Source: an uncultured Gemmatimonadaceae bacterium (GTDB lineage Bacteria > Gemmatimonadota > Gemmatimonadetes > Gemmatimonadales > Gemmatimonadaceae). Taken from it: 64,000 nucleotides of DNA. Positions 26,191-33,990 of this stretch are shown here, piece by piece; within the stretch, counting starts at the first letter, position 1, and each line of letters starts with the position of its first letter. The stretch covers positions 736,001 through 800,000 of the forward strand of contig CAWFQK010000004.1 in assembly GCA_963817955.1 (NCBI GenBank), in the 5' to 3' direction. A program made the position numbers and the translations under genes. The notes under the pieces were generated by a model that did no database searches, had not been told where the DNA came from, and saw nothing but the letters and a program-made list of their open reading frames with translations.

Positions 26191-26547
26191 ATGTCACGCC
26201 TGCCGGTCCTCAAGGGAACGCTCGACCTCCTCGTCCTCCGCGCGCTGAGCTGGACGCCGATGCACGGATTCGAGATCGTCACGTGGCTCGAACGGGCCGC
26301 CAATGGGGCACTCGACGTCGACGATTCCGCGCTGTACCAGGCCGTCTATCGCCTGGAGGAGCGCGGGCTGCTCGAGGCGGAATGGGGCATCACGGCGAAC
26401 AACCGGCGCGCGCGCTACTACAAGCTCACGGCCAACGGTCGCGCGCACCTCCGCGCCGAGACAAAGAGCTGGGTGCAGTACGCGGACACCGTGACGAGCA
26501 TCCTCACCGCTGGCAAGGACGCCCTGCCCGCGCGGGCGAAAGGATGA
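26191..26547 (+). CDS. PadR-family transcriptional regulator (acidobacterial type)
   Basis: 'LKGTLDLLVLRAL', 'ALYQAVYRLE', 'EWG.TANNRRARYYKLT'. Confidence 0.92.
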   Translation: MSRLPVLKGTLDLLVLRALSWTPMHGFEIVTWLERAANGALDVDDSALYQAVYRLEERGLLEAEWGITANNRRARYYKLTANGRAHLRAETKSWVQYADTVTSILTAGKDALPARAKG

Positions 26548-29189
26548 TTCGCGGCGGCGTACGACGGTTCTTCCACCTCGCCCTTCGACGGCGCGACCGT
26601 TGGGAGCGCGAGGTGGAGGACGAGATCAAACTACACCTCGCGCTTCGCGCCGAGCAGTTCGTGGCGCACGGCGCCACACCAGACGAAGCATGCCGCGAAG
26701 CCATGCGCCGCTTTGGGCCATTGGATGAATCACGCGCCCGGCTACTCGACGCCGCGCGCCACCGGGAGCAGCACATGCGACGCACCGAGTATCTGTCCGA
26801 CCTGTGGCAGGATCTGACGTTCGCCGTTCGCACGCTGCGGCGCGAGCGCGCGTGGACCGTGGTGGTGATCCTCACGTTGGCGCTCGGCATAGGCGCCACC
26901 ACGGCGGTCTTCAGCGTGGTGAGCAGCCTCATGCTGCATCCGCTGCCGTATCCGAACGCCGACCGCGTGATGCTGGTGGCGCAGCAGCCCACGACGGGCA
27001 ACATGACGGGGATCCAAGTGTCCGTCGACGCGCCGCCACCCTTGATAAAGGCATGGCGCAGCGGAGCGCGGTCGTTCGAATCGCTCGAGCCGTTCCGCCC
27101 GTTCAACACGCTCATGCAGACGAACGGCGAGCCCTCCCAGCTCAGGGCCGCGCAGACGTTGCCGAGCTTTGCCACCTTCGCGGGACAACGCGCTCTCCAT
27201 GGCCGCCTGTACGACGCGGGCGACATCGAGCGGCGAGATCACGTCGTCGTGTTATCGGAGCAGCTCTGGGTTTCGCGTTTCGGGGCCGACGCCTCAGTCA
27301 TCGGCAAGCGTATCACGCTGGACGATAGCATCTACACGGTGATCGGCATCGCGCCCGCGGCGCTGCGGCTGCCAACGATCGGGCTCCTTCCAACCGACGT
27401 CTGGCTTCCACTCGACCTCGGCAAATCACTCTATGGAATTCGGAACGTGGGGCGTCTCCGGACTGGCGTGACGCCGACGGCCGCCGCCCGCGAGCTCGAT
27501 TCTCTGTCGCTGCGATCCGGCGTCTATCCCGGCCCCAAGCTACCGCTCGTCGCGACCGTCACGCCGCCCGCCCGACTCATCAGCTTTCGCGAGTCGCTGA
27601 TGATGCTCAGCGCCGCCGTGGCTCTGGTGCTGCTGGTCGCGTGCGCCAACGTCGCGCATTTGCTGCTGGCGCGCGCCGCGGCGCGTCATCGCGAGTTGGC
27701 CATTCGCGCCGCGCTCGGCGCCGGCCGGCGGCGCCTGTTCCGCCAACTGCTCACGGAAAGCCTGATGCTCTCGCTGGCTGGCGCCGCGCTGGGCGTATTC
27801 GTTGGATGGATTGGACTGCGCGCCATGCTGCTGCTCCGCCCAGCCGAATTGCGCGAGCTCCGCGCCGCCCATCTCGACGGAACCACGGTGATCGTCGCTG
27901 TAAGCGTCGCGGTGCTCTGCGGCATTGCCTTTGGTGTGCTGGGTGCGTTCCAGTCGGCACGCCAATCGACGCACGACGCGCTGAAGTCGGGGGCCTTGTC
28001 GGCGTCACACTCTCGCCGCCATGATCGTCTTCGCGCGCTACTCGTCGTCAGTGAAATGGCCCTATCGGGCGTGCTGATGGTGGGCGCCGCACTGCTCGTG
28101 CGTAGCGTGATCAACATGCGACAGACCGATCTCGGATTCGAGCCACGCGGTCTGTACGCCATCAGTCTCTCGCTGCCCAGTTCACGATACGCGACGCCGG
28201 CCTCCCGCGAGAGCTTCGTGCAGGAGTTGACGACGCGGCTGCATGGACTGCGAGGAGTGCGGGACATTGCCATGGCGGGGGTCGCTCCCGGCTCGTTCAC
28301 TTTCATTCTTGGCACGCTCGAAATCGAGGGCGAGCCAGCGCCGCCGGCCAACAGCTCGGCGTACATCGCCGACAACAACGTGGAGCCAGCGTTCTTCCGG
28401 ACGATGGGGATTCGATTCGTGGAGGGTGGCGTGTTCACCGACACGAGCAAGACGTCCAACCAAATCGTTGTCAACAATGGGTTTGCACGGAAGCACTGGC
28501 CTCGAGGTGGGGTGGAGGGGCATCGGCTGCGAGTGGTTTACGGGGGCCAGGGCAACTGGATGACCATCGTTGGCGTGGTGGCTGACGCAATGGTCGGCGG
28601 TCCGGTTCGAGAGACGTCGGCACCAATGTTGTATTCTACCGGTGACCACCAATACCTCCGGGCGATTCTCATTCGCACCGACGGCACCGCGGACCCACTG
28701 ACGCCAATACGATCGCTGCTCCGATCGATGGATCCGCACATGATGTCCAGCGACGTATCCAGTATCGAGCAGATGATGGGGAACTCGATCGCGGAACCCC
28801 GGTTCACGATGGTGTTGTTGACCGCGTTCACGGGACTGGCGCTACTGCTCGCGGCGATCGGCCTGTACGGCGTCATGTCCTATTCCGTCGCGCAGCGCAC
28901 CCGCGAGATCGGCATTCGCATCGCGCTCGGCGCCACCCGCAGCAACATCGCGAGCGTCGTGGTGGTGCGCGGATTGATCCTGACCGCACTGGGCGCGGCG
29001 GCGGGCCTCGCCGGAGCCTATTGGGGCACGCGCATGCTCGGCGATCTCCTGTACGGCGTCACGCCACTCGACCTGCCATCGTTCGCCGTCGGCGCAGGAG
29101 TGCTCTTTGCGGCGGCAGTCCTCGCGTGCCTGGTACCAATGCGGCGAGCCGTACGAGTCGATCCAATCGCGGCGATACGGACGGAGTGA
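26544..29189 (+). CDS. duplicated ABC-type permease (ADOP/MacB-FtsX family)
   Basis: 'LALGIGATTAVFS', 'ACANVA', 'RELAIRAALGA', 'VAQRTREIGIRIALGA'. ATGA overlap with the PadR gene. Confidence 0.92.
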   Translation: MIRGGVRRFFHLALRRRDRWEREVEDEIKLHLALRAEQFVAHGATPDEACREAMRRFGPLDESRARLLDAARHREQHMRRTEYLSDLWQDLTFAVRTLRRERAWTVVVILTLALGIGATTAVFSVVSSLMLHPLPYPNADRVMLVAQQPTTGNMTGIQVSVDAPPPLIKAWRSGARSFESLEPFRPFNTLMQTNGEPSQLRAAQTLPSFATFAGQRALHGRLYDAGDIERRDHVVVLSEQLWVSRFGADASVIGKRITLDDSIYTVIGIAPAALRLPTIGLLPTDVWLPLDLGKSLYGIRNVGRLRTGVTPTAAARELDSLSLRSGVYPGPKLPLVATVTPPARLISFRESLMMLSAAVALVLLVACANVAHLLLARAAARHRELAIRAALGAGRRRLFRQLLTESLMLSLAGAALGVFVGWIGLRAMLLLRPAELRELRAAHLDGTTVIVAVSVAVLCGIAFGVLGAFQSARQSTHDALKSGALSASHSRRHDRLRALLVVSEMALSGVLMVGAALLVRSVINMRQTDLGFEPRGLYAISLSLPSSRYATPASRESFVQELTTRLHGLRGVRDIAMAGVAPGSFTFILGTLEIEGEPAPPANSSAYIADNNVEPAFFRTMGIRFVEGGVFTDTSKTSNQIVVNNGFARKHWPRGGVEGHRLRVVYGGQGNWMTIVGVVADAMVGGPVRETSAPMLYSTGDHQYLRAILIRTDGTADPLTPIRSLLRSMDPHMMSSDVSSIEQMMGNSIAEPRFTMVLLTAFTGLALLLAAIGLYGVMSYSVAQRTREIGIRIALGATRSNIASVVVVRGLILTALGAAAGLAGAYWGTRMLGDLLYGVTPLDLPSFAVGAGVLFAAAVLACLVPMRRAVRVDPIAAIRTE

Positions 29190-29194
29190 GATGA

Positions 29195-29545
29195 GACACG
29201 GGACACGGGACAACGGCTGACTGCGTGCTAACTGCGCTAACTGCGGGCTTGGGCTCCGGGTGGTGACCGGCTGGATGTCGCTGGCTGCTCCGTAGCGGTC
29301 GGCCCACCGGTCGGCGAGTTTCGAGTTGCCAGTTGTGAGTGATGCGTTGCGCGTTTTAAAAAACGCACAACTCACAACTCACAACTGGACACCCGAACCT
29401 CGCCGACCGGCGATAGTGGCCTGCGAACCAGGCGCCCTGGTGCGCATGACCCGTATACTGACAACTCACAACTGCCAACTGATCACTGATCACTGATCAG
29501 TGATCCCCCGCGACGCCTGTCGTCCCGCGCGAACCCTGTCATCCC
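29195..29545. repeat. Left arm of long inverted repeat
   Basis: Near-exact reverse complement of 31473-31851. Contains GGGACAC, CACAACT and TGATCAC heptamer runs and an internal hairpin at 29307-29410. Confidence 0.9.
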
Positions 29546-29713
29546 CGGGTCACAACAACCACGGGACACGGGACTGCCGTACCTCTCTACTAGTACTAAC
29601 GCTGAAACGTTCAAAACATGTCGGTTATTGGTCAATCAGTCATATTGACCCTTGCGCTGCCCCCCCAATTTCGGAACTAATATATAGGACTACGACCATC
29701 GCCCGACGCTCGG

Positions 29714-31182
29714 GTGGCGAGGCGGGATCGATCGTGGCGAGATCGAAGTCGATCGTGGCGAGATGGGATCGATCGTGGCGAGATGGGATCGATCGTGGCG
29801 AGATGGAATGCGATCGCGCCGAGATCGACTTCGATCGCGCCGAGATGGAATGCGATCGTGCCGAGATGGGATCGATCGTGCCGAGATGGAATGCGATTCC
29901 GCCGAGACGGAATGCGATCGCACCGAGATGGAATGCGATCGCGCCGAGACGGAATGCGATCGCGTCGAGATGGAATGCGATCGCGCCGAGACGGAATGCG
30001 ATCGTGGCGAGATGGAATGCGATCTCGCCGAGATGGAATGCGATCGTGGCGAGACGGAATGCGATCGCGCCGAAATCGGAATGCGATCGTGGCGAGATGG
30101 GATCGATCACACCGAGATCGAATTCGATCGTGGCGAGATGGGATCGATCACGCCGAGATCGAATTCGATCGCGTCGAGATGGGATCGATCGTGCCGAGAT
30201 CGAATTCGATCGTGCCGAGATGGGATCGATCGTGCCGAGATCGAATTCGATCGCGTCGAGATGGAATGCGATCGCGCCGAGATCGAACGCGAGCCTGTCG
30301 ACCGAGCATCGCAACCCGGCGACATGGCATTGCAACGCGGCAAGTTGGCACCCCAACGCGCCAAGCAAGGATCGTCGCGTGTCCAGATCGGATCGCAACG
30401 GATCGAGCGAGGATCCCAGCGCGGCGAGCCAGGATCCTCGCCTTGCTAGCAGGCATCGCAACGGGCCGAGGAGGGAGGCGATCGCGGCGAGATCGCATCG
30501 CATCGCCGCGAGGCGACTCTCTTGCGTGCCGAGACAGCAGCGCCCGATGCCGAGCTGCTTTCCGAGCGCATCGAGCTGAGATCGCAACTCGGCGAGAGAG
30601 CACTCAAACTCGCCGAGACGCAATCGGAGCGCGTCGAGACGGCACCCGAACTCGTCGAGACGCCATCGGAGCGCGTCGAGACGGCACCCCAACCCTTCGA
30701 GATCCCATCCTAACCCATCGAGACGGCACCTCAACCCTTGAGATCCCATCCTAACCCATCGAGACGGCACCTCACCCTCGAGATCCATCCAACCCTCGAC
30801 AGCACCTCCGGGCACCCTAACTCATTGAGCGGGTACCCCAACCCGTCGAGACGAGACCTCAACTCGGAGAGCTGCCACTCCAACGCATTGAGCCGTCAGC
30901 CGAACGCGTCGAGCGGCCACTGTAGCGCGTCGACACGGCACTGCAACTCGGCGAGACGCTACTCCAACTCGCTGAGACGACACCCCAACGCTCCGAGACG
31001 ATATCCCAACGCAGGGAGGCGACATCGCAACTCCCCGAGCCGACTCGCAACTCCCCGAGGCGACATCGCAACTCCCTGAGACGACATCGCAACTCCCCGA
31101 GGCGACATCGCAACTCCCTGAGACGACATCGCAACTCCCTGAGACGACATCGCAACTCCCTAAGACGACATCGCAACCGCCC
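29714..31182. repeat. 20/21-nt periodic tandem array (several sub-blocks)
   Basis: Block A (29714-30290): CGAGATGGAATGCGATCGYNN mixed with 20-nt CGAGATGGGATCGATCGTGN units. Degenerate middle. Block C (~31015-31180): GAGRCGACATCGCAACTCCCY. Confidence 0.9.
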
Positions 31183-31278
31183 GAGGCGGTTGCTCCCAGT
31201 TTTCGACCCCGGCGCATCGGGCGCCCGTCGGTATGCAGGTCCATTTCGGCGCCCCGTTGGCCGCGGACACGAGGCGCC

Positions 31279-31510
31279 TGTCATCCTGAGCGACGCCGTA
31301 TCAATCTGAGCGAACCGTAGGATCTCGTGACCAGCCGGCTTCGACCCCCGAATGGAGAATCGCCTCTCGCGTTCGACCTATACGTGCTTCTCTCCGCAGT
31401 TCTCTGCAGTTCTCTGCGACCTCTACCGTTGAAATGCTGTTCTGTCGGTCACAGAGATCCTTCGCTTCGCTCAGGATGACAGGGCTTCGCGCAGGATGAC
31501 AGGGCTTCGC
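31279..31510. repeat. Partial REP/MITE copy nested inside the long-IR element
   Basis: GTCATCCTGAGCG...GGATCTCGTGACC at left; GCAGTTCTCTGCAG and GTCACAGAGATCCTTCGCTTCGCTCAGGATGACAGG at right. Confidence 0.8.
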
Positions 31511-31851
31511 GGATGATCAGTGATCAGTTGTGAGTTGTCAGTTGTGAGTTGTCAGTATACGGGTCATGCGCACCAGGGTGCCTGGCTCGCCGGCCACTAT
31601 CGCCGGTCGGCGAGGTTCGGGTGTCCAGTTGTGAGTCGTGAGTTGTGAGTTGCTAAAAACGCATAACGCATAACTCACAACTGGCAACTCGAAACTCGCC
31701 GACCGGTGGGCCGACCGCTACGGAGCAGCCAGCGACATCCAGCCGGTCACCACCCGGAGCCCAAGCCCGCAGTTAGCACGCAGTTAGCACGCAGTTAGCA
31801 CGCAGTTAGCCCGCAGTCAGCCGTTGTCCCGTGTCCCGTGTCCCGTGTCCC
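31473..31851. repeat. Right arm of long inverted repeat
   Basis: Reverse complement of 29195-29545, with different copy numbers of GCAGTTAGCAC and GTGTCCC units. Ends at the thrS stop codon. Confidence 0.9.
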
Positions 31852-33813
31852 TTACCCGTGCGCAGCCAGTACCAGCGCTCGCGTCGCATTCTCTTCCGCG
31901 ACCCTCTCCACGAACGTATCGAGCGGAATCGAGTTCGGCTTCTGCTCCTTCCCCGCCCCGCGCACGTTCACCGCGACGGTGCCGAGTTCGGCCTCGCGCC
32001 TTCCCACCACGATCATGTACGGCACCTTCATGCGCGCGCCTTCCGCCACCCGGTACTTGAGCGTCTCCGACCGCGCGTCGAGATGCACGCGTACGCCCGC
32101 CGCGTGCAAGCGTTTCGTGACCTCCTCGGCGTACGCACGGTAATCGTCGGTGATCGGCAGCACCCGCACCTGTTCCGGCGAGAGCCAGACGGGAAACGCA
32201 CCGGCGAAATGCTCGATGAGAATGGCAATGAACCGTTCGATCGATCCACTCACCGCACGATGGATCACCACCGGCCGGTGGGCGTTGTTGTCGTCGCCCA
32301 CGTACGTGAGATCGAACCGTTCCGGCGCGTTGTAGTCGAGCTGGATGGTGCCGAGCTGCCAGGGACGGCCGATCGAGTCCATGACATCGAAATCGATCTT
32401 GGGTCCGTAGAACGCGCCGTCGCCGGGCTTGAGCTCGTATTCCATTCCCGTCGCTTCGAGCGCGGCGCGGAGCGAGGCCTCGGCGCGATCCCACATCTCG
32501 TCGGTGCCGATTCGCACCTCGGGCCGCGTCGCGAACTTGAGCTTGGCCGTGAGACCGAACGTCTGCGTAGTAGTCGAGGATGAAGCGCAGCAGAAAGTGC
32601 ACTTCATCCTTGATCTGGTCTTCCGCGAGGAAGACGTGGCAGTCGTCCTGCTGGAACTGACGCACGCGCGTGAGGCCCGACAGCGCGCCGGTCACTTCGT
32701 TCCGGTGCAGCACGTCAAACGTCACGAAGCGCAGCGGGAGCTCGCGGTAGGAGTGCTTCTTCGTCTGGTACATCAGATAGTGCGACGGACAGTTCATGGG
32801 CTTGAGCGAGAACTCGTGCTCGCCCGTCTCGTTGTCGAGCACGAGGAACATGTTCTCGCGGTACTTGCCCCAGTGGCCGGAGATCTCCCACAGCCCCTTG
32901 TTGTACAGGAGCGGCGTCTTGATCTCGCGGAAGTCGTCGCGCTGGCGCTCGCGGATGAAATCCTGAATCGCGTTGAACAGCGATGGTGCCACGCTCCGTC
33001 CAGAACACGGCGCCGGGCGCGAACTGGTGGATCATGAACAGGTCGAGCTGTCGGCCGACCACGCGGTGGTCGCGCTTCCGCGCTTCCTCGATACGCTGGA
33101 GGTACGCGTCGAGCTCGTCCTTCTTGAAGAACGCCGTCCCGTAGATGCGCTGCAGCATCTGGCGCTTGGAATCGCCCCGCCAGTAGGCGCCGGCGGTATG
33201 CAGTCAGCTTGAAGTGCTTGAGGCGCGACGTATCGGGCACGTGCGGACCGCGGCACAGATCGATGAACGGTCCGTCCGTGTACGTCGAGATGATCTCATG
33301 GTCGCCGAGCTCGGACAGCCGCTCGAGCTTGAGCGGATCGTCGGCAAAGCGCTGTTGCGCCTCACTGCGACTCACCTCTTTGCGCACGAACGGCAACTTC
33401 TCCGCCGCAACCTTCCGCATCTCGTTCTCGAATGACGCGAGATCCTCGGGCGTGAACGGCTGCGCGACTTCGAAGTCGTAGTAGAAACCTTCGTCGATCG
33501 ACGGACCGAAGCCGATCTTGGCGTCCGGGCGCAGCCGACGGACGGCCGTCGCGAGGATGTGCGCCGCCGAGTGCCGGAGCACGTCAAGCGCCGGGGCATC
33601 GCGATCGGTCAGCACCCGAAATGTGCCGCTCACACGCAGTGGCGTCACGAGGTCCTGAAGCGTGTCGTTCACCTCCACCGCGACCGCGGCCTGAAGCAAA
33701 CGTTCACCAATCGATTTGACGACCTCGGACGGCAGGGTTCCTGACGCCACGGTGCGCTGCGATCCATCAGGCAGCGTCAGCGTGAGCATCGCTTCGGATG
33801 GGCGATCAATCAT
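31852..33813 (-). CDS. thrS: threonine--tRNA ligase (two apparent frameshifts)
   Basis: 'RHSAAH', 'DLCRGPH', 'RDHR', 'KPMNCP', '[11 protein letters not shown]', 'QLGTIQLD'. Confidence 0.95.
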
Positions 33814-33990
33814 GTGGTTTAGACGGATGATTTGCCATCCAAGCGGGTGGAGAGTTTTCGCAGAGAATGCGCTCTCCAACACGTACTCCAGATGGCCTTG
33901 TTCTTGCACCGCGAGCGACGCGAGCACTCGCGCGATCTGTCTGCGTAAACTATCCTTCTGCAACAACCTCCGCCACAGGGCTCAGTCTCT

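Follow-up and report, generated by a model that had tools for sequence, protein, structure and literature searches.

A probable patchwork of lineage-specific repeats around a decayed MKY cassette in the permease-thrS spacer of an uncultured Gemmatimonadaceae bacterium

The Permease-thrS Junction

The locus considered here belongs to an uncultured Gemmatimonadaceae bacterium whose genome was assembled as 4.53 Mb in 9 contigs, with a G+C content of 64%; the named homologues of one gene treated below likewise derive from metagenome-assembled genomes of this family. The window, by which we mean the whole stretch of DNA that was analyzed, comprises 64,000 nucleotides and corresponds to C4:736001-800000. 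Coordinates of the element and its parts are given as window positions, and the labels C1, C4, C5, C6, and C7 denote contigs of this same genome. The subject is a 2.65-kb block of repeats lying between a permease gene and thrS, which are convergent. A preliminary description of this DNA stated that the block fills the gap between the two genes, and it does so almost to the nucleotide: the left arm starts 5 nt past the permease stop codon, and the last base of the right arm, 31851, adjoins the stop codon of thrS. The features of the locus are as follows.

26283 to 29189, plus strand: permease of the FtsX/MacB type, duplicated, forming the left flank (Pfam FtsX and MacB_PCD)
29195 to 29246, plus strand: microsatellites at the outer end of the left arm, with a run of (GACACGG) heptamers and then a 9-10-nt repeat (Tandem Repeats Finder, TRF)
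29245 to 29410, plus strand: arm module M1, a 62-nt head and a 104-nt hairpin at 29307-29410 (locus counts, folding)
29411 to 29545, plus strand: arm module M2, heptamer runs of the AACTCAC and ACTGATC types with two degenerate 19-mers resembling repetitive extragenic palindromic (REP) units (TRF, 30-copy alignment)
29560 to 29715, plus strand: 5' end of the cassette and its AT-rich leader, opening with two CACGGGA heptamers and holding a conserved core at about 29640-29690 (nhmmer, alignment)
29714 to 30292, plus strand: array part A, CGAGAT-anchored units alternating between 21 and 20 nt in a 41-nt higher-order repeat (TRF period 41, 13.8 copies, 88% matches)
30293 to 31188, plus strand: array part B, degenerate and then regular 21/42-nt units of the YGAGNCG...CAAC type (TRF, unit list)
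31189 to 31263, plus strand: tail of 75 nt, the last conserved piece before the MKY start codon in intact copies (11 loci)
31264 to 31472, no strand assigned: REP-like zone in the place of the gene, with 20-mer REP units as an inverted pair and 10-nt repeats (inverted-repeat search; 54-62 loci in the genome)
31473 to 31851, minus strand: right arm, the reverse complement of M2, M1, and the outer microsatellites (repeat search, TRF, BLAST)
31852 to 33966, minus strand: thrS, forming the right flank and reading in at least three frames (Pfam; tblastn with the thrS of a relative)

The preliminary description had found an AT-rich leader, a periodic array, and a REP-like part within the block and no enzyme gene, and both TRF and Pfam bear this out. 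Of four interior open reading frames (ORFs) scanned against Pfam, two gave no match at E ≤ 0.01 and the other two gave only sub-threshold matches to coiled-coil families or domains of unknown function. None of the ORFs in the block or in the flanking DNA is a recombinase gene, and an Rfam search of positions 28000-33000 at E ≤ 1 returned only sub-threshold, miRNA-type hairpin look-alikes. A CRISPR array was considered and ruled out, the 20-21-nt units being contiguous and without spacers.

Inserted DNA and Its Second Copy

The junction was compared with 13 loci of the same genus that include the 3' end of thrS, at 8 of which an orthologue of the convergent permease adjoins it. The spacer between the two genes is ~13-104 nt in seven of these eight relatives and 2,662 nt here; in the eighth it is 536 nt and, read by eye, contains an extra small response-regulator-like gene. 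Because the spacer is short in the relatives, the 2.65-kb block is inserted DNA, and the empty sites that had been anticipated do exist. The inserted sequence is also largely peculiar to this lineage. A search of 30 related genomes yielded no match to the arms, none to the leader, and none of array length. Nearly all of the matches that were obtained fall on the REP-like part (query positions 2092-2372), the only part that is shared, and the few others are short, the longest being 65 nt to the array at 77% identity.

Within its own genome the block is present a second time. Copy 2, at C4:1119787-1122310, aligns with window positions 29244-31852 at ~86% identity (1969 and 1023 alignment columns). 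Arm, interior, and arm are arranged as in the window, the tail meets REP sequence at the same junction, and the leader-side arms of the two copies are 96.5% alike, with the outer ~50 nt absent from that arm in copy 2. The neighbors of copy 2, a GH2 glycosidase and a DUF4337 protein on one side and a DUF2911 protein on the other, are unrelated to the genes flanking the block in the window, and they are non-syntenic at the four orthologous loci found in relatives. Reading the flanks by eye revealed no shared direct repeat, and hence no target-site duplication, at either copy. The composite was copied once, to or from C4:1.12 Mb, after its pieces had been joined.

Could the block instead be an assembly artefact, a fold-back or a collapsed repeat? 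The assembly does contain faults. The C-terminal ORF of thrS (31852-32607) is only part of a gene whose frame switches three times when compared with the protein of a relative by tblastn, whereas the thrS genes of relatives are open over 659-704 amino acids. As thrS has a single match in the genome, the assembly probably has indel errors, and the frame breaks likely reflect these (~1.5 per kb here) rather than a pseudogene. An artefact is nevertheless extremely improbable as an account of the block. A diverged copy with the same architecture (~86% identity) lies elsewhere on the contig, and all of the parts belong to families with many independent copies. Moreover, a metagenome contig of 151 nt matches positions 29071-29221 exactly, across the junction of permease and arm, and two more are exact matches within the array, to 30395-30555 and 30485-30635; these contigs are short, of low depth, and from three soil-metagenome runs of one study, and none spans an arm or the block.

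The Arms Are Copies of a Dispersed Mosaic Repeat

The arms were described from the outset as reverse complements differing mainly in microsatellite copy number, and this proved accurate. An inverted-repeat search pairs 29236-29499 of the left arm with 31514-31777 of the right over 264 nt at 94% complementarity, leaving 2014 nt between them, and the outer parts (29185-29236 and 31801-31852) are complementary over 52 nt at 90%. The identity of arm to arm by BLAST is 90.7% over 333 columns. According to TRF, the main differences lie in the copy number of the heptamer, the 9-11-mer, and the inner heptamers: the 7-nt unit numbers 2.6 copies on the left (29195-29212) and 3.9 on the right (31825-31851), and the 9-11-nt unit 3.3 copies (29214-29246) and 5.3 copies (31764-31821), respectively. 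Each arm carries a strong hairpin when folded as DNA, with energies of -42.5 kcal/mol (z -8.7 against shuffles) on the left at 29307-29410 and -43.1 kcal/mol (z -9.7) on the right at 31603-31706. This 104-nt hairpin consists of two inverted halves, as in REPINs (REP doublets forming hairpins).

Rather than dedicated termini, these arms are copies of a mosaic hairpin repeat that is dispersed over the genome. BLAST of the left arm against the whole genome gives 30 rows of at least 180 nt, including both arms of the window and both of copy 2. The coverage profile is modular, with 108 loci for the 62-nt head, 33 for the full-length 104-nt hairpin, and 40 for the initial 60 nt of M2. When 30 long copies are aligned, their flanks are unrelated, tandem arrangements are frequent, and heptamer runs and REP 20-mers stand at the inner end. 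Elsewhere the arm copies are solitary, tandem, or otherwise oriented. Beside the other copies of the interior family, arms are missing or differently oriented, and the two-arm arrangement is repeated only in copy 2. Ten long arm copies, all in one orientation, lie within 84 kb at C1:396-480 kb, a region that resembles a repeat-rich island.

The heptamers that mark the arm ends are themselves the dominant short tandem repeats of the genome. Runs of at least three exact copies occur at 146 loci, compared with 7-26 loci for periods 5, 6, and 8-11. The ACACGGG class accounts for 67 loci and the ACACGAG class for 36. Heptamer runs often directly follow stop codons or stand at the ends of larger repeats.

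This distribution bears directly on the proposal that the block is a non-autonomous transposon, its ~350-nt arms serving as terminal inverted repeats recognized by an enzyme encoded elsewhere. That the arms are long and similar, that the block is missing from the junction in relatives, and that a second copy with identical right-side ends sits between unrelated genes would all be expected of such an element. Yet only two copies exist; the secondary truncation common to both is what segmental copying would produce; copy 2 is missing the outer 50 nt at its left end; and target duplication is visible at neither. Two other inward-facing arm pairs exist, each 9 kb apart, at C5:23.3/32.7 kb and C4:905/915 kb, and they enclose ordinary housekeeping genes (amino-acid permease, CtaA, M24 peptidase, aminotransferase, and similar). 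The composite does recur once as a whole between unrelated genes, so that it cannot be said that the arms never recur as a pair, and this single recurrence keeps the transposon alive as an explanation, albeit an improbable one. What survives of the mobile cassette of an unnamed class that was originally envisaged is therefore the insertion itself and the one recurrence of the composite; its "termini" are dispersed, other pairs hold ordinary genes, and its "cargo" is a truncated cassette.

Mobilization in trans by a repeat-associated nuclease had been suggested, and this found no support: a six-frame search of the 94%-complete genome gave no match to the Y1 transposase family PF01797, which includes the REP-associated tyrosine transposases (RAYTs) and was detected in 6 of 14 control genomes. 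Nor was an autonomous partner with arm ends seen among the arm loci examined, a full transposase census not having been made. A gene for an IS481-type transposase (helix-turn-helix and rve domains) at C4:905.5-906.8 kb abuts an arm copy as a flank, not as a terminus. Arm copies at C5:39.6 kb and C4:244 kb have this same flank, and the insertion sequence is therefore multi-copy; it may favor arm repeats as landing sites.

A pair of inverted arms could also act as an invertible switch, recombination between them flipping the leader and array and so redirecting transcription toward thrS or the permease. The 264 nt at 94% are ample for homologous recombination, and the interior has a predicted, probable promoter. 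Against this, no recombinase gene lies in or beside the block, and in both genomic copies the interior is oriented alike with respect to the arms, which can be told apart, making a switch very improbable.

A Truncated Cassette at the Center

The interior begins with a leader that, at 45% G+C over 29575-29700, departs markedly from the 64% of the genome. The periodic array that follows extends over 1.5 kb (29714-31188; TRF periods 21, 41, and 42) and contains ~70 units; cutting it at the GAG anchor gives 69 pieces, 36 of them 21 nt long and 10 of them 20 nt. Leader and tail fold no better than shuffled sequences (z -0.6 and +0.2, respectively).

None of these parts is unique to the block. The leader has 21 nhmmer matches in the genome, which head long arrays in 8 copies and patchy arrays in 10, and the array architecture of the window is present in the 7 other long copies. 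Homology beyond the leader continues for 1.7-2.3 kb, through the tail and into a conserved ORF whose product starts with MKY. This MKY gene encodes an orphan protein of 250 amino acids, basic and all-helical, and profile hidden Markov model (HMM) searches place it at 22 loci, several of them fragmented; given the indel errors of the assembly, some of those scored as fragmented may be intact. An intact cassette of ~2.3 kb consists, in order, of a heptamer run, the AT-rich leader, a 21-nt-periodic array, the tail, the MKY gene, and a terminator-like hairpin just past the MKY stop codon, where homology between copies ends. Throughout the family, the units keep one polarity relative to the MKY gene. 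The tail in the window stops at 31263, and where the MKY ATG would be expected there is REP sequence. The cut falls exactly at the start codon, and neither tblastn nor an HMM search found a remnant of the MKY gene anywhere in the window.

More distant paralogues, 28-35% identical, preserve this design. At C4:1266036, C4:914201, C1:142535, and C1:442472, a similar leader core precedes 21-nt arrays, each with its own unit, and the array is followed by a hairpin, a ribosome-binding site, and an ATG. The arrays of different paralogues have no common core motif: only 7-13 of 21 positions match after the best rotation. Overall, 15 of the 22 MKY loci have a TRF array of at least 80 nt within 700 nt upstream. 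Period 21 accounts for 142, and period 42 for 45, of the 820 tandem arrays in the TRF table of the genome. Also present in this genome are six tandem arrays of period 180 nt, which together cover 3.4 kb.

A second kind of orphan array is found at C6:90 kb (C6:89.1-90.2 kb), which duplicates the region upstream of the C1:442 kb cassette. This remnant keeps the leader core, REP units, a 21-nt array, the hairpin, the ribosome-binding site, and only seven MKY codons, after which comes a gene for a tricorn-type protease. Several arrays of 21/42/63 nt with no MKY gene nearby were also seen, for example at C4:30560-30807, C4:492299-492625, C5:41770-42160, C4:1664065-1664401, and C7:126472-126970.

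Arrays and MKY Proteins in the Gemmatimonadota

The arrays are non-coding. In the window, the 20-nt units and the 41-nt higher-order repeat break every reading frame. For the arrays, G+C at codon position 3 is 0.51-0.72, compared with 0.77-0.83 in genes. In the paralogues, stop codons occur upstream of the ATG in the MKY gene's own frame, and 8 of the 21 arrays tested have stops in all six frames. One might still suppose that the minus strand of the array, divergent from the MKY gene, codes for a coiled-coil protein of heptad repeats, as a frame of that strand shows heptads of the L-x-x-L type and one copy is open for 651 amino acids across its whole array. These open frames arise because the units lack stop triplets. 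The 20-nt units shift the frame repeatedly, such that the heptad register is lost in the frame of the window, and no conserved start codon is apparent. Together with the un-gene-like codon position 3, where G+C is 0.51-0.68, and the stops in all six frames of paralogue arrays, this leads us to reject the minus-strand heptad protein, which we regard as most improbable.

The MKY family is not confined to one genome. Of 121 genomes sampled from the phylum, 23 have it, and these belong to two families within a single order. Among the 26 genomes of the genus it is present in 15, which give 1-13 matches apiece, compared with 28 matches in the genome of the window. The period of 21 accompanies it. 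In the region from -700 to -60 relative to MKY genes, the top autocorrelation lag is 21, 42, or 63 at 20 of 22 loci of one set and 8 of 11 of the other, 28 of 33 in all, although the loci were taken as the best-scoring matches and not at random, and related genomes do not count as independent. The corresponding figures are 3/22 and 6/11 (9/33) for gene bodies and 2/21 and 0/10 (2/31) for downstream regions. The link of 21-nt-periodic, paralogue-specific upstream arrays with MKY genes extends across the Gemmatimonadota. Among 46 ORFs flanking MKY genes in other genomes there are no conserved neighbors, 27 having no Pfam match, and no gene for a partition ATPase or Rep protein was found near arrays among the flanking ORFs scanned. 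Literature searches on tandem or intergenic repeats of Gemmatimonadota, 21-bp repeats, and phased 21-bp sites turned up no description of the cassette or its arrays.

None of the libraries searched puts a name to the protein. Comparison with Pfam, NCBIfam, PHROGs, and PADLOC gave nothing at a significant E-value, the best PDB sequence-profile match had an E-value of 0.15, and the ESM Atlas returned unnamed clusters only. From 1.84 billion cluster representatives, a profile search retrieved 4,733 at E ≤ 0.001, of which 838 reach E ≤ 1e-30. A confident AlphaFold2 model (mean predicted local distance difference test score 84.9) is all-helical, with two 55-residue helices and a disordered Pro/Thr-rich tail, and the structured core has a pI of 9.9-11.3 in 17 of 17 aligned members. 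The disordered C-terminal tails contain short tandem peptide repeats of the TTQGS, PTPA, and PVTT types, the number of which varies between close relatives.

Do the arrays act as DNA or as RNA? In the latter case, the leader would drive a repetitive 5' untranslated region or non-coding RNA, bound by MKY or another factor or serving as a sponge, and the orphan copy in the window would be a stand-alone non-coding RNA gene. The layout in this genome is compatible with this: the leader core is always upstream of the array and the array upstream of a ribosome-binding site and ATG, the unit polarity is constant relative to the gene, and the cassette ends in a terminator hairpin. Other observations point away from RNA. 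No Rfam family matches (a search of three related MKY loci at the gathering score gave none), and leader and tail lack any structure beyond that of shuffled sequence. Retention of a period of 21, two helical turns, while the sequence changes is more typical of phasing on one face of DNA, and other genera have an AT-rich, promoter-like stretch interposed between the array and the gene. We therefore consider an RNA role unlikely, if still worth bearing in mind.

Interpretation

Taken together, these considerations lead us to regard the block, with somewhat better than even confidence, as a patchwork of nested, lineage-specific repeats that occupies a once-short spacer between convergent genes and has at its center a decayed MKY cassette, the array of which would have functioned as a phased platform. 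The course of events may be pictured as follows. Repeats would have accumulated in the short spacer between the permease and thrS; a cassette was cut at the MKY start codon, REP-like DNA taking the place of the gene; two inverted copies of the mosaic hairpin repeat came to form what look like arms; and the assembled composite was then duplicated as described above. The conserved leader core is probably the promoter/operator of the cassette. With its phasing of two helical turns, the array would offer the basic MKY proteins a platform on which to land, as DNA rather than as RNA and with a unit sequence proper to each paralogue. The copy in the window would be an orphan platform: it may retain binding or transcription, yet no protein is made from it. 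By analogy with REP elements and bacterial interspersed mosaic elements (BIMEs), the arm hairpins abutting both stop codons probably act as transcript-end hairpins and as recombination substrates.

Several observations weigh against this picture. The composite moved or was duplicated once as a unit, which a pure "accidental neighbors" view leaves unexplained. MKY has no recognizable DNA-binding fold: Foldseek against the PDB gave nothing at E ≤ 0.001, and the best Z of a wide VIA search, 9.5, reflects a generic likeness to helical bundles. A scan for sigma-70 promoters and terminators gave neither a terminator nor a promoter consensus match in the leader. Gene bodies, too, are periodic at the 9 of 33 loci mentioned, perhaps from heptad-like helices, and hence do not provide a clean control, and the selection of loci for autocorrelation has the bias already described. 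In other genera, the array lies upstream of the AT-rich stretch and not downstream of a leader, which makes its placement relative to the promoter less certain. Lastly, the indel errors of the assembly make details of the array units less certain at the level of single bases.

A bolder idea, which we put forward tentatively and think more doubtful than probable, is that the MKY protein and its 21-bp-phased, paralogue-specific array constitute an undescribed, self-contained module. The protein would polymerize on its own sites, forming an autoregulatory or nucleoid-organizing filament; the module would spread as a 2.3-kb cassette; and orphan arrays would recruit the proteins in trans.

On its own, the element in the window is repeat debris, and it serves as a warning against taking two nearby copies of a dispersed repeat for the ends of a transposon. 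The orphan MKY family and its 21-nt-period arrays are of wider interest and could reveal a new DNA- or RNA-organizing system in a common soil phylum. According to a published survey (PMC11237797), Gemmatimonadota genomes differ strongly in their load of 90- and 150-bp repeats, and MKY cassettes and arrays could explain some of the differences in repeat load of the kind outlined there.

Relation to Known Repeat Systems

BIMEs are mosaic combinations of REP elements. REP elements and REPINs (PMC3337134, PMC3116915) are short, hairpin-forming extragenic repeats of Enterobacteria and Pseudomonas. The arm repeats resemble all of these in forming hairpins, in numbering tens to hundreds of copies, in their mosaic construction, and in their position directly after convergent genes. 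They differ from REPINs in that no RAYT/Y1 was found in this genome, and from the group as a whole in that their modules are longer (62-nt head and 104-nt hairpin) and interleaved with heptamer microsatellites, and in that their sequence is confined to this species among the 30 relatives searched.

The boxA-(boxB)n-boxC layout of BOX elements provides a second parallel, in that the region upstream of MKY genes likewise has a fixed head, variable tandem units, and a fixed tail, in ~20 dispersed copies. BOX elements (PMC3049150) are dispersed repeats of Streptococcus pneumoniae. The head, array, and tail described here are instead the upstream part of a gene cassette and not free-standing, and the arrays, at up to 70 units and 1.5 kb, are far larger.

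For the arrays themselves, the closest functional counterparts would be sites bound by a dedicated protein. Iteron arrays of plasmid origins and tandem-repeat centromeres, such as ParR-parC and SopB-sopC, are bound by their own proteins. The likeness lies in direct repeats at a spacing of about two helical turns, in their place next to a gene for a small basic protein, and in their paralogue-specific sequence. In contrast to those systems, the arrays are chromosomal, at up to 22 loci per genome and with tens of units each; the ORFs scanned near them include no partition ATPase or Rep gene; and MKY, for which we infer binding, lacks a recognized DNA-binding fold.

Finally, short tandemly repeated repetitive (STRR) sequences of cyanobacteria are dispersed heptanucleotide repeats. 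Heptamer runs likewise dominate the short tandem repeats of this genome, where they mark the ends of arms and cassette alike. Unlike the stand-alone arrays of STRR, however, they are junction pieces of larger mosaic repeats.

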